NCBI GenBank assembly: GCA_964016885.1
Contig: OZ024741.1
Span: 10,106,001-10,170,000 of the forward strand
Direction of reading: 5' to 3'
DNA: 64,000 nucleotides
DNA from: Eledone cirrhosa
Lineage: Eukaryota
The position numbers and the translations under genes are program-made. Below, piece after piece: positions 4,835 to 57,313 of the stretch (position 1 is the first letter of the stretch; every line of letters starts with the position of its first letter). The notes under the pieces were generated by a model, which was given only the letters and a program-made list of their open reading frames with translations, was not told the origin of the DNA and searched no databases.

Positions 4835-5289
4835 AATTATATGTGTTGGATTCTTATAGAATTCTAGTAATAATCAGGAACTGATTATAAAGAGCGGTCG
4901 CCTGTCCAGCAGGAATTGAAAATTAGAATTGGTGCTCTGAAATAGCGATATATATATGAATGTATATATAGTGTATTTTGCAATACACTGGTTATTACTG
5001 GAATTACACCTGATTATTACTGGAATTCTATAAGAACACAACACACGTAATTTTCAACAAACAGGGGAGAGTAGTGAGCTTTGATAAGTACCAACAAGTA
5101 CGAAACAAAGCTCTGTCAGCTTATCTCCCCTGTTTGCTGAAAATTTAAATAAGTGACATTGTCACTACTTTAAAACAACAGCGTATGGCCTCCAAAATTC
5201 TTTTAATTAAGCATACAGTGTATTGCAAAATACACTCTATATACATTCATATATATATCGCTATTTCAGAGCACCAATTCTAATTTTCA
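4835..5289 (+). mobile_element. Penelope-like pLTR remnant with overlapping inverted repeats
   Basis: IR 4917-4990/5216-5289, IR 4835-4878/5009-5052, inner IR 5049-5070/5124-5145 enclosing a hammerhead; ends in (TA)n. Confidence 0.7.
5076..5122 (+). ncRNA. Type I hammerhead ribozyme, U3:A8 core variant
   Basis: GAGCT-TTGATAA-GTAC caacaa GTAC-GAA-ACAAAGCTCTGT (near-palindrome)-C-AGCTT; GUC triplet. Confidence 0.75.
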
Positions 5290-5497
5290 TATATATATAT
5301 ATATATATTTAGGTTTGTTGGTTCGCCACTGGATAGAACTGGTCATTCCGTATGGTCAACATCGATGTAATATTATGGAAGCACTCAACGTAATGCAACT
5401 CACCCGTCTTCGTTTGTGTAGTTGGTGGTGCGAGTACGGAGTTAATCATTATAAAATAACAGGAGGCTGGACTGGGGTAATTCCTTAAAGGTTTATT

Positions 5498-5555
5498 ATA
5501 CTATGAACATTTCAATGCCCGGGTTCAGTATGAATCCGGTGACATCATCAGGTAT
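5498..5555 (-). ncRNA. Hammerhead-like motif in a pLTR remnant
   Basis: rc: ATAC-CTGATGA-TGTCACCGGATTCA tac TGAACCCGGGCA-TT-GAAA-TGTTCA-TA-GTAT followed by AATAAA; extra bases before GAAA. Confidence 0.6.
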
Positions 5556-6024
5556 TCAAAATATAACAAAGGAATATAGTAGACAAAATCCATTGGGGCT
5601 GAAAATCAGAGACATGAGGGCGACCGAACATTTAGAAGATTCTACCCTGGTCGGCCGCCCTCATATATATATATATATATATATATATATATATAAAGGA
5701 TAGTTTATAAAGTTTATATCTAACCACACGTGTTACTCTATGATTTAACAATAACACGGGAACAAAATCTGTTTTAAAATTTATCATAGATGTACATGAT
5801 ACAACAAAAAAGTTGTCAGTGAAATAAAGCCACAATACAGTTTCCCTTCTCGCTGACAACTGAGTCCCGTTATACCCCCACCCATATATATATATATATA
5901 TATATATATATATATATATATATATATATATATTTAATTAGAAAGTGAACAACACAAAATATACATACTAAGAGAGAACCAGTTTAAAACCACTTAAGCC
6001 TGTAATCAAATCTATACTATAACT

Positions 6025-6122
6025 AGTCGGGACCCAACCGCTCAGCTCTTGTCGTTTCAACAGCTAGTTCCAGACTGGAACTAGCTCTTGAAACGACAAG
6101 CGCTCAGCCTCGAATTTCGACT
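6025..6122. repeat. ~100-bp hairpin element, copy 1 of the GAGCTCAGCCGTCGGGGTC family
   Basis: GCTCTTGTCGTTTCAACAGCTAGTTCCAG-A-CTGGAACTAGCTCTTGAAACGACAAGCGC; homologous to 9447, 20315, 57411. Confidence 0.8.
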
Positions 6123-6333
6123 CTTTATTTTATATATATATATATTCAATTTTTTCAATTTGAATCTGTGCCAACGGTTTCCCTGCCCCTGAGAACGGTC
6201 AGGAATAGCTTACCTCCTCTTTGGTCTCAAGTCACGTGCCACTGAAAGTCGAAGTTACAACGACACTGGCCGGTGTCCATCGGAGTGGTGTAGTGGGTAG
6301 CTAGTCGGAATTATCTGTTGCAGGGAGGATAAT

Positions 6334-6459
6334 CCCCGCTGAAGATGCGATTCTAGCCACTTATATAATGTTTGCTAACATTACCTAATTTCTGCGCATT
6401 AGTTCCATTTGGACTGCTGCTAGCTGATGGATTTGCAGAAACTAATGCGTTGGTTCGAG
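6334..6459 (+). ncRNA. Decayed hammerhead-like motif with a long stem II insert
   Basis: CCCG-CTGAAGA-TGCGA...TTGCA-GAA-ACTAATGCGTTGGT (decayed palindrome)-T-CGAG. Confidence 0.4.
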
Positions 6460-53934: not shown

Positions 53935-54728
53935 ACTAAAGGTGGAAAACTGGGAGAGGGCACTTGCCTTGGTGGTCAGGGTCATTGTGGCTTTTTACTG
54001 GGCTTTCTCCACAAATGTCCCTCCGAAGTCTCCCCCCTATTGGGGAATTTTTCATTGTTATTTTTTGTTACATCCTCTGTTTTTGTTTTTTACACGCAGA
54101 AATGCCCATTTGTATCGTCCTGCATTGTCCTGCACTGTCCTTAATGTCTACTTTATGTAAACCCTTGTGGTTAATAAAGAAATCATTATTATTATTATTA
54201 TTATTATTATTATTATTATTATTATTATTATTATATATATATACAAAGAGAGAGAGAAAGGAATACACATATACGTACCTATCTCCCTACCTACATACAT
54301 ATATATATACATACATACATACACACATACATACATACCCACCTATATATATACATGCATAAAAAAGTAAGAGTGCGTGTTTTTGTATATATATATATAC
54401 TCGTATATACTGTATTTATCTACTTTCCTTCAGTGCTTGTACATGTATATATATATGTATATATATATATGTATATATATATGTATATATATATGTATAT
54501 ACACATGTGTTAGTCAACTTCTACCTAATGGCATGATTAAATAGATGTAAGACGCTGTTAGACTATCAAATCCAAGAATGACAAGCTACTTGGATGCTTT
54601 TAAGTTAATCTTCATGGCCAGCAGACAAGACTCATGTCCGTGACTATCGTCATTAAAGTCACGTGAGCGAGAGTAACACCACTTCACTGATATTTACTGA
54701 CCACATGGAAACCTATATATAATCCCTT

Positions 54729-55250
54729 CACATACACATACACACATACATACACATATACACATACACACATACATACATACACACATACACATACACA
54801 TACACATACACACATACATACACACACACACACATACATACACACATACACATACACATACACACATACATACATACACACATACACATACACATACACA
54901 CATACATACACACATACACATACACATATAAACATACCTACATACACACATACACATACACATACATACACATAAAGACATACACACATACACATACACC
55001 GCACAGGGAAGAAGAAGAAGAAGAAGAAGAAGAAGAAGAAGAAGAAGAAGGCAAAGAAGAAAAAGAAGAATAGATAAAATAAAGAAATAAATATAATTTG
55101 GTAACGATTTTTTTTAATATTGACGTATATATATATATATATATATATATACACACACACACACGCACACACACACACACACACACACACACACACACAC
55201 ACATACACACACACACACACACACACACATATATATATATATATATATAT
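54729..55250. repeat. (CACATA)n, (GAA)n, (TA)/(CA) microsatellites
   Basis: Direct reading. Confidence 0.92.
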
Positions 55251-55397
55251 AATTGGTGGTGGATGCTTAAAGCGTCTGTATGCGGTAGGCTGTATGAGCA
55301 CTTGATGCTCTCATAAAGCAGAGTATGATATCACAATGATATCACAGTGATATATATATATACTTTCGGACGTTCAACTATCTGGCAGGAAGGTATA

Positions 55398-55438
55398 CAT
55401 TGCTGACGATAGCTAACAAGCTTGAAACTAGTACAGCG
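55398..55438 (+). ncRNA. Minimal type I hammerhead ribozyme
   Basis: CATTG-CTGACGA-T AGCT aaca AGCT T-GAAA-CTAG-TA-CAGCG. Confidence 0.75.
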
Positions 55439-56940
55439 TTCCTTTGTCAGTGTTGAACAAACGAGCAACGGTGGTTGCTAGACACTACGGCTTAATACGG
55501 GATGTTTGTTTACAAACACACCGAGCATTATAATAAGTGTTAGGTGAATCCATACGTACATATATATATGTATGCATGTATGTATATATATATACATACT
55601 ACTGTGCGTCTGTATACATATATGTATGTACGTATACATACGTATATTTATATATATATATATATATGTGTGTGTGTAGAGGTTATATTTAATTTGTTGG
55701 GATACAACAAGCAAAATATTTTTATAACTGATATAAAGCACTCAACAAATTATTGGAGTAAATATACAATATATTAACAAATGGAAACTATATTTATAAA
55801 ACCATATTTATTTCATTATACATATTTCAAGGGCCACCAAGGCAAACTATGGTGCGTTTTCATCAGATAAAATATAATATAGGTTAGTTTTATAAATAAA
55901 TATTGACATACCCTGAAAAAATGCAACCATTCTGGTTGGAATCTCCTGGATAGTGGAGTTATTAGATTTATTGTTGGTTTATTATGCAAATTAGTGTTGG
56001 AAAGGTTTTAATAACAGTATATTTAAATTAAGCCGTTGGAATAGGGAAAAAAGAAAGAAAGAGAAAAAAGAGAAAAAACGAAAGAAAGAAAGAGAAAAAA
56101 CCTTAGTATATTTAAGTGAGAGAGAATAGCGTAATTTTGAGAGAAGAGGCGAAGAAATAAATATAGTGCGGATGAATATCGTAGAATGGATAAACAATAA
56201 TAAATTAAGTTGAAGAATTTTATCTGTTTAATTAATAAATATGATTAAATGCTTAATTAATAATTTATCAATTCAATCCGTAGTTTAAATGTTTAAATGT
56301 GTATGTTAGATTATTAAAGTTGAGACCTATATATTATTAAAGAATATATATTATTAAAATATATATTATTAGAAAATATGTTATTATTACAAAACCATAT
56401 ATAATTTTATTAATTATTAATTAATTATTTTTAAAAATTTGTATGTTTAAAATATCCAAATAAGCTCATGGAAATTCCGAGAGTTTACAGAAGAATAATC
56501 CCTTATTTGTAATAGCAGTAGAGCGTAAAGGAAATTGCTAGCGATTTATTAATAATTTAGATAGGTCTAAGGATTAAATGCTATAATGTTAAGATGTTAA
56601 AAAAATTAAATTTTCCATCTTAATAATGTAATTAGACTATGAATCTTATGTTATTTTATAGCAAGTTATAATTTTATAACTCTACCTGTTATACAGTTAT
56701 GACTGTTAAAACATAAATTTGTTTGCTATAACGTGTTAACATTTAAAAATTCTTTCATAGGAATATATCTAAAGTATAAACCATAAAAAAAGACTTCCAT
56801 AAGAGTATATCTATAGAATATATTTAAAGTATAAATTTTATATATATATATAAACATTTTGATATATATATACACACACACATATACACACACACACACA
56901 CATATATATATATATATATATATATATATATATATATATA

Positions 56941-57313
56941 TATAAAGAAAAAGGGATGAAATCGAAAATGCAACTGAAGTCTTATTTTTTTAAAAATATA
57001 TATATTTATTTGGTTCCTTTACCGGTTTCGCAGTTCTTCTGCTTTTCAAAAGGTGAGTTGAGATGGAGGGTCTGTGGTTTTTCTCACATGAGAAAAACCA
57101 CACGTGAGAAAAACCACAGACCCTCCATCTCAACTCACCTTTTGAAAAGCAGAAGAACTGCGAAACCGGTAAAGGAACCAAATAAATATATATATTTTTA
57201 AAAAAATAAGACTTCAGTTGCATTTTCGATTTCATCCCTTTTTCTTTATACTTCCACTCGTGTAGGACACCTCGGTTATTTTTCATTTTGTAAAAAAAAA
57301 CCTCACTTTCTAA
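56941..57313. mobile_element. Perfect ~147-bp-arm fold-back of another pLTR end
   Basis: 56941-57087 is the reverse complement of 57103-57250; right arm extends ~60 bp to (TA)n. Confidence 0.9.
57138..57175 (+). ncRNA. Minimal type I hammerhead, U3:A8 core variant (mirror copy 57016-57053 on -)
   Basis: CCTT-TTGAAAA-GCAG aagaa CTGC-GAAA-CCGG-TA-AAGG, then AATAAA. Confidence 0.82.

Follow-up and report, generated by a model that had tools for sequence, protein, structure and literature searches.

Introduction

Natural hammerhead ribozymes in which core positions 3 and 8 hold U3-A8 in place of C3-G8 are already on record, the closest counterparts of those considered here being the Cercyon-associated Penelope hammerheads of Schistosoma mansoni, for which a dedicated descriptor returned ~1,300 matches (Cervera & De la Pena 2014, PMC4209133; this and the other works are cited for the portions available to us). 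Natural U3-A8 was also reported by Perreault et al. (2011, PMC3088659), who cited earlier in vitro activity and in whose set Watson-Crick pseudoknots between stems I and II, which raise cleavage rates, occurred in ~40% of cases and in all three hammerhead types. Two further groups of elements bear on the comparison: the retrozymes that lack long terminal repeats (non-LTR retrozymes), which have been treated as non-autonomous Penelope derivatives (bioRxiv 10.64898/2026.07.22.740005), and the Penelope-like elements of the Neptune/Nematis type, which possess a CX2-5CxxC finger between the reverse transcriptase (RT) and the endonuclease (Craig et al. 2021, PMC8557442). Here, we analyse a 64,000-nucleotide (nt) stretch of the Eledone cirrhosa genome (assembly GCA_964016885.1, contig OZ024741.1, positions 10,106,001 to 10,170,000, forward strand), referred to in its entirety as the window, which contains three hammerheads with the U3:A8 core. 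We consider it probable that these represent three Penelope-type lineages in which U3:A8 is fixed, the third belonging to an intact element and the first two likely being retrozymes, with all three predicted to self-cleave mainly as dimers swapped at stem III. This reading rests on sequence, copy numbers, genomic context, the fixed state of the core and covarying helices. A first-pass annotation of the window had reported the motifs as mutually unrelated hammerheads whose recurrent covariation implied a possibly large overlooked ribozyme class, and did not recognise their Penelope and retrozyme context.

Three hammerheads with a U3:A8 core

The three motifs are real type I hammerheads with a UUGAnAA core, all on the plus strand, with intact helices and a palindromic or near-palindromic stem III; an inverted twin of the third had been missed by the first-pass annotation, and a descriptor scan also found canonical hammerheads of one other family in the window.

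5075..5123, plus strand: motif 1, type I hammerhead, U3 at 5081 and A8 at 5086
13641..13728, plus strand: motif 2, type I hammerhead, U3 at 13646 and A8 at 13651
57138..57175, plus strand: motif 3, minimal type I hammerhead, U3 at 57142 and A8 at 57147
57016-57053, minus strand: inverted twin of motif 3, with an identical hammerhead
10801-10866 and 18675-18740 (minus strand), 18912-18973 and 57908-57973 (plus strand): canonical C3:G8 hammerheads of one other family

Motif 1 combines a 6-bp stem I (5075-5080/5118-5123) with a 4-bp stem II closed by a 6-nt loop; its core starts at 5081, GAAA follows at 5102, and a near-palindromic stem III leads to a GUC site with predicted cleavage after 5117. 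A change at position 5108 breaks the palindrome that is present in most other copies, and the 3' end at about 5123 lies one base beyond the end first annotated. In motif 2, stem I (13641-13645/13724-13728) flanks a core that begins at 13646, a long, bulged stem II of 57 nt in which the bulge comes after 2 bp, GAAA at 13710, and a stem III that is a perfect 8-nt palindrome, with predicted cleavage at a GUC site after 13723. Motif 3 is more compact, comprising stem I at 57138-57141/57172-57175, a core from 57142, a 4-bp stem II, a 4-nt palindrome and a GUA site, with predicted cleavage after 57171.

At a descriptor score of at least 13, the window holds four U3:A8 motifs, where 30 dinucleotide shuffles yield 0.03 per window, and the three surrounding units have no mutual similarity by BLASTN (best E 0.2), so that the motifs are as genuine and as dissimilar in their flanks as first described. 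Rfam matches motif 1 to HH9 only, weakly (18.8 bits against a gathering threshold of 52), and gives no hammerhead match to motifs 2 and 3 at E<=10; among the 150 of 234 whole-window matches listed there is only miRNA-hairpin noise and no hammerhead family. This miss is not specific to U3:A8, since the window's canonical-core motifs are likewise without a hammerhead family among the matches listed.

Copy numbers and fixation of the core pair

Each of the three motifs marks a dispersed, high-copy repeat family. The genomic counts given here are pattern matches in the 3.0-Gb assembly and are counts of motifs, so that tandem and inverted twins are counted separately. With exact patterns that left positions 3 and 8 free, family 2 has 5,886 matches and family 3 has 6,408, and the wider lineage of motif 1 has 1,625 with a looser architecture pattern; the reversed-pattern controls gave 0 in each case. 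The total for the U3:A8 class is ~14,500 pattern matches. Canonical-core hammerheads outnumber these, as the window's own canonical family alone has 29,919 matches, with C3:G8 in all of the first 100 listed.

The core pair scarcely varies within the families. U3:A8 is found in all of the first 100 matches listed for families 2 and 3 each, and position 8 is other than A in 24 of the 5,886 family 2 matches (12 G, 5 C, 7 T) and 25 of the 6,408 family 3 matches (9 G, 6 C, 10 T), every one with U3; these changes, ~0.4%, are those at position 8, changes at position 3 alone falling outside the count. The exact pattern of family 1 gave 69 copies with U3:A8, one with U8 and none without U3, and the first 100 of the 1,625 matches to its wider lineage divide into 99 U3:A8 and one U3:G8. 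The family consensuses are U3:A8 and not CUGANGA, and single changes are rare in the young families, not as common as double ones. U3:A8 is accordingly fixed by lineage, inherited from founders; because each family is fixed for it, what we observe are three inherited states and not the recurrent covariation that had been claimed.

The 29,919-match canonical family has an A+T-rich stem I and a six-letter palindrome, and its stem II begins with A or G, differing between subfamilies. Many more C3:G8 hammerhead families are present in the flanks of the loci that were read, and a fourth U3:A8 architecture, unlike those of families 1 to 3, was sighted once, on the minus strand of locus L117, ~526 nt from its 3' end.

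Motif 3 is the ribozyme of a Penelope-like element

The window holds two partial copies of the family 3 element, placed between (TA)n tracts.

57090..57312, plus strand: family 3 copy ending at (TA)n; it is the 3' end (pseudo-LTR), truncated on its 5' side, of a Penelope-like element that is autonomous and has two open reading frames (ORFs)
56941..57090, minus strand: inverted partial copy of the family 3 element end, carrying the twin hammerhead

The plus-strand copy is 97-98% identical to both terminal repeats of a full element in locus L153, which is organised as repeat, ORF1 (409 amino acids), ORF2 (775 amino acids) and repeat, with one ribozyme per repeat, 4,689 nt apart. ORF2 overlaps ORF1 in the -1 frame, measures its 775 amino acids from stop to stop, and comprises an RT, a C-X4-C-X2-C finger and a GIY-YIG endonuclease; Pfam scores are 28.4 bits for GIY-YIG (cut-off 22.6) and 28.7 for RVT_1, slightly below its cut-off of 29.6. 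The predicted cut lies ~170 nt upstream of the start of ORF1. Longer copies of the family reach upstream into the end of the GIY-YIG frame, and in 28 of 30 loci chosen by the endonuclease C-terminus, each with a 1.5-kb flank, the U3:A8 motif stands 1.0-1.36 kb past the stop. Family 3 further shows the Penelope hallmarks of 5' truncation, an inverted 5' copy, partial tandems and (TA)n targets, its sequences being too uniform for covariation to appear. Motif 3 is therefore the terminal-repeat hammerhead of an intact RT plus GIY-YIG Penelope-like element.

This ribozyme fits directly with the pseudo-LTR hammerheads of PMC4209133, with which it shares type I topology, U3-A8, a short palindromic stem III, a place in terminal repeats, and many truncated or opposite-strand copies; it differs in its 4-bp stem II, which has no unpaired base after A9, and in belonging here to a young element with many intact ORFs and ~6,400 matches. 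With the Neptune/Nematis elements (PMC8557442) the element shares a C-terminal GIY-YIG, a finger before it, a separate ORF1, (TA)n targets, partial tandems, an inverted 5' copy and a tail; it differs in its U3:A8 core, and the likeness is one of finger and anatomy.

In locus L037, two family 3 copies are not one element, because they are part of a segmental duplication there, in which multi-pass membrane-protein-like frames at 2788-3879 and 8847-9899 (plus strand) are also duplicated, 6 kb apart. Within the window, a 90-bp perfect inverted repeat at 57397-57585 recurs beside family 3 copies and at other loci, with a related stretch in L199, and is probably a terminus of a further family of the Penelope type.

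Motifs 1 and 2 lie in non-coding tandem units

The units around motifs 1 and 2 take the following form in the window.

5009..5289, plus strand: family 1 partial copy, a ~318-nt non-coding unit with motif 1, followed by (TA)n
4834..4990, minus strand: family 1 inverted partial copy, upstream of the forward copy
13339..13969, plus strand: family 2, flanked by (TA)n tracts, consisting of one 591-nt non-coding monomer and a terminal direct repeat of ~40 nt

Both families form ORF-free tandem and inverted arrays at (TA)n. Family 1 has a tandem period of 317-319 nt in loci L038 and L039. The 591-nt unit of family 2 contains no long ORF; its copies lie head to tail in arrays that include an inverted block and end in (TA)n (L041, L023 and L015), and in L041 five 591-nt periods, measured from ribozyme to ribozyme, follow one another. 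In circular folding, the monomers of both families come out 62% paired, and each is more stable than its 60 shuffles (z -7.5 for family 1 and -5.6 for family 2).

With animal non-LTR retrozymes (PMC7229834; bioRxiv 10.64898/2026.07.22.740005) both families share non-coding tandem units with one type I hammerhead each, low G+C, a self-paired monomer and co-occurrence with Penelope elements. Family 1, at ~318 nt, fits the reported unit size of ~170-400 nt, and its 6-bp stem I and 4-bp stem II are the canonical animal type I shape (PMC4209133), whereas family 2, at 591 nt, falls outside that range and has a long stem II and a predicted pseudoknot. Further differences from described retrozymes are the U3:A8 core and, in the arrays, Penelope-type inverted 5' copies and a ~40-nt tail, the terminal repeat of family 2 resembling the 30-40-bp tail of Penelope-like elements (PMC8557442); both families are known here from genomic units. 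Families 1 and 2 are thus likely retrozymes mobilised by Penelope-type elements.

Several candidate links were set aside. The RT plus GIY-YIG ORF in L042 was tried as the partner of family 1 and belongs to a different Penelope family, 25% identical to the motif 3 element; as a distinct family with a canonical-core motif of its own, it is adjacent to family 1 only incidentally. In L094, L100 and L111, the endonuclease matches close to lineage 2 copies appear to be insertions of their own (sequence read for L094 and L111), and the common 3' ends considered as a sign of one mobilising partner agree over only ~six letters, which is not significant. A single 620/621-nt contig with ends that meet at the unit junction (13339-13969; X1 and X4, depth ~8) is no evidence for circular RNA, because tandem DNA at low depth looks identical; the sequencing runs X1 and X4 are labelled as other organisms and are not on record as RNA.

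Other Penelope-related sequence was observed nearby and at these loci. In the 3' region of the second Penelope family, that of L042 (1311-3758, minus strand), inspection by eye shows a minimal hammerhead with the canonical core. At 12225-13175 in the window, a truncated Penelope-like endonuclease frame on the minus strand is followed by an apparent inverted copy of its 3' end with a degenerate canonical-core hammerhead at ~12931-12980 (plus strand), again by eye, and the stretch ends at (TA)n.

A lineage with a predicted pseudoknot and a C3:G8 sister

Ribozymes related to motif 2, found in the flanks of other loci, share a word of five letters ahead of stem I, and the complement of this word lies within stem II; in the window the two would form the following helix.

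13634..13666, plus strand: predicted 5-bp pseudoknot, the 5' flank of stem I (13634-13638) pairing with the stem II bulge (13662-13666)

A pattern built on both words gave 583 matches and 0 controls, the first 100 of which comprise 95 U3:A8, 3 U3:G8, 2 C3:A8 and no C3:G8. In 27 parsed members of this lineage 2, a few of them misparsed rows, N7 takes all four letters and stem III differs in sequence, is 6-10 nt long and is mostly still palindromic; the spacing of the 5-bp helix is tight, with 6-7 nt before the core and 7-10 nt after it. An alignment of 23 hand-selected members (19 from the U3 side and 4 sisters, described below) has 93% of cells paired, against 33-45% in slid-partner controls, and in 7 of its 17 pairs both partners have changed; pair 3:8 is U-A in 18, C-G in 4 and U-G in 1. 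Two-sided changes also occur in the lineage of motif 1, in stem II and stem I. We regard it as likely that lineage 2 holds stems I and II parallel by a Watson-Crick pseudoknot that replaces the usual loop contact.

A second pattern, in which both words were free (477 matches, 46 controls), exposed a C3:G8 sister subfamily. Its stems, palindrome and GUC site match those of lineage 2, pair five of the 5-bp helix is A-U instead of G-C, and its upstream sequence is homologous to that of lineage 2 (67% over 209 nt, E 6e-7). Its 12 rows within the first 100 matches divide into 8 C3:G8, 3 U3:G8 and 1 C3:A8, single mutants not being rare in a group that is old and decaying, with copies ~70-85% alike. 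In a tree of 35 rows, a single group (support 94/94, short of the star level set by the tool) takes in the 6 C3:G8 rows, a U3:G8 row and a C3:A8 row; the tree is unrooted, and the rows for L103 and L114 took family 2 copies from their flanks. Because the C3:G8 rows form one group, the core swap and the helix swap are one shared event and not many. L204, a truncated U3:A8 copy, also carries the A-U form of the helix. Only one switch between C3:G8 and U3:A8 is demonstrable, inside the lineage of motif 2, and on the unrooted tree it may be read in either direction; this single switch is what becomes of the recurrent covariation first proposed. An apparent U3:G8 family (L178, L190, L195 and L196) was excluded, having no hammerhead 3' half on that strand.

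A stem I/II pseudoknot, predicted here, and natural U3-A8 covariation are features shared with PMC3088659; the examples consulted there are mostly microbial or phage, whereas in the present case the two are united in one repeat lineage of an animal, alongside a C3:G8 sister. The available portions of PMC7761336, PMC6155905 and PMC6765202 make no mention of pseudoknotted type I forms in animal retrozymes, and a search of accessible main texts found no account of a U3:A8 lineage with a pseudoknot and a C3:G8 sister.

Proposed mechanism and alternative explanations

By energy models that leave out the pseudoknot and tertiary contacts, the strand-swapped active dimer is equal to the free minimum for motif 2 and lies +1.4 kcal/mol above it for motif 3 and +3.9 kcal/mol for a common family 1 copy, with active monomers costing +1.1, +7.1 and +8.5 kcal/mol, respectively. 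Read-through transcription of tandem or terminal repeats would place two ribozymes on one RNA; cleavage between paired ribozymes would then release unit-length RNA, which in families 1 and 2 may circularise; and a Penelope RT/endonuclease could copy the RNA into (TA)n tracts, giving rise to tandem arrays with an inverted 5' copy.

Several points weigh against the interpretation as three self-cleaving Penelope-type lineages. Family 1 is mostly single or inverted, with one same-strand pair among the 24 loci listed, although the pattern behind that list overlooked the tandem pair in L038, which was detected otherwise. An autonomous partner of families 1 and 2 was not found, and neither has detectable sequence shared with the motif 3 element. 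For motif 1 as it stands in the window, misfolding is predicted, the active dimer lying at +18.3 kcal/mol because the palindrome is broken, and the lineage 2 alignment was picked by patterns that partly presuppose the structure, related rows recounting one change many times. Among published systems, Penelope hammerheads are slow and their minimal forms of low activity, 8 of 9 Xenopus retrozyme dimers showed no cleavage (bioRxiv 10.64898/2026.07.22.740005), and the anole Penelope ribozyme is dispensable for insertion in vitro (PMC11167929). The last of these, in which ribozyme mutants inserted in vitro and cleavage needed protein, also favours the idea that the fold persists mainly because it serves retrotransposition as a structural or protein-binding signal, cleavage being weak or incidental and constraint on catalysis so relaxed that an A+T-rich genome tolerates U3:A8. 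The low activity of minimal forms and the predicted preference of family 1 monomers for an inactive fold point the same way, but the core letters and the GUC site are near-invariant across divergent subfamilies in which N7 and the stems vary, and subfamily states are U:A or C:G only and never a mismatch; we hold this idea to be improbable. That the motifs are chance matches is suggested by the richness of the window in inverted and simple repeats, and is a negligible prospect given their rarity in shuffled windows, the thousands of genomic copies without a match to reversed-pattern controls, and the covarying helices.

Two alternatives concern history and helix pairing. U3:A8 might have arisen once, in an old Penelope lineage of which the three families are diverged descendants: targeting of (TA)n and inverted insertion are common to the three, their common 3' ends are alike over ~six letters, and non-coding units diverge fast. 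The three architectures are nevertheless different and have no alignable sequence, and lineage 2 has its homologous C3:G8 sister, whose upstream homology makes the lineage 2 switch separate from the other families unless the sister reverted; a single origin is a serious contender but the less likely course. The 5-bp helix of lineage 2 might instead be a competing hairpin that closes over the core as a ribozyme off switch, since both arms flank the catalytic box and could form a simple hairpin, and since the one arm pair that changes does so on both sides under either pairing. The tight spacing fits the rate-raising stem I/II pseudoknots of PMC3088659, and we consider an off switch rather unlikely.

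Other features of the window

The remainder of the window includes, at 42395-53934 (plus strand), two tandem copies of an L1/Tx1-like long interspersed nuclear element (LINE), the second with an intact 1,204-amino-acid endonuclease-RT frame; a broken relative of this LINE at 34899-38889 (minus strand); and, at 20733-27919, a 32-bp satellite in ~221 copies and, after it, 4.7 kb of AC-rich simple repeat.

Significance

U3:A8 in Penelope-associated hammerheads is already known, and what we describe is a known core variant in known kinds of elements. The class first annotated as possibly large and overlooked is indeed large, at ~14,500 matches, but it is not overlooked, because U3-A8 is already published, including the Schistosoma copies of PMC4209133 and the examples of PMC3088659. 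The added value lies in the lineage with a predicted pseudoknot and a canonical-core sister. Surveys restricted to strict CUGANGA would miss those ~14,500 motifs, against the 29,919 of the one canonical lineage counted, and would lose with them a young Penelope family's ribozyme as well as two retrozyme-like lineages in their entirety. In lineage 2, natural C3:G8 and U3:A8 ribozymes are matched and have one predicted pseudoknot in common, so that what the swap costs and what the pseudoknot does can be tested directly. More tentatively, and with somewhat less than an even chance in our estimation, the data may reflect an old but still-expanding radiation of ~600-nt retrozymes with a pseudoknot, in which C3:G8 switched to U3:A8 on one branch, together with independent fixation of U3:A8 in at least three mobile lineages, namely a retrozyme of canonical shape, a pseudoknotted one and an autonomous Penelope element. 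If this is true, the sister subfamilies would constitute a natural experiment on the peripheral contacts that permit the swap of a conserved catalytic pair.

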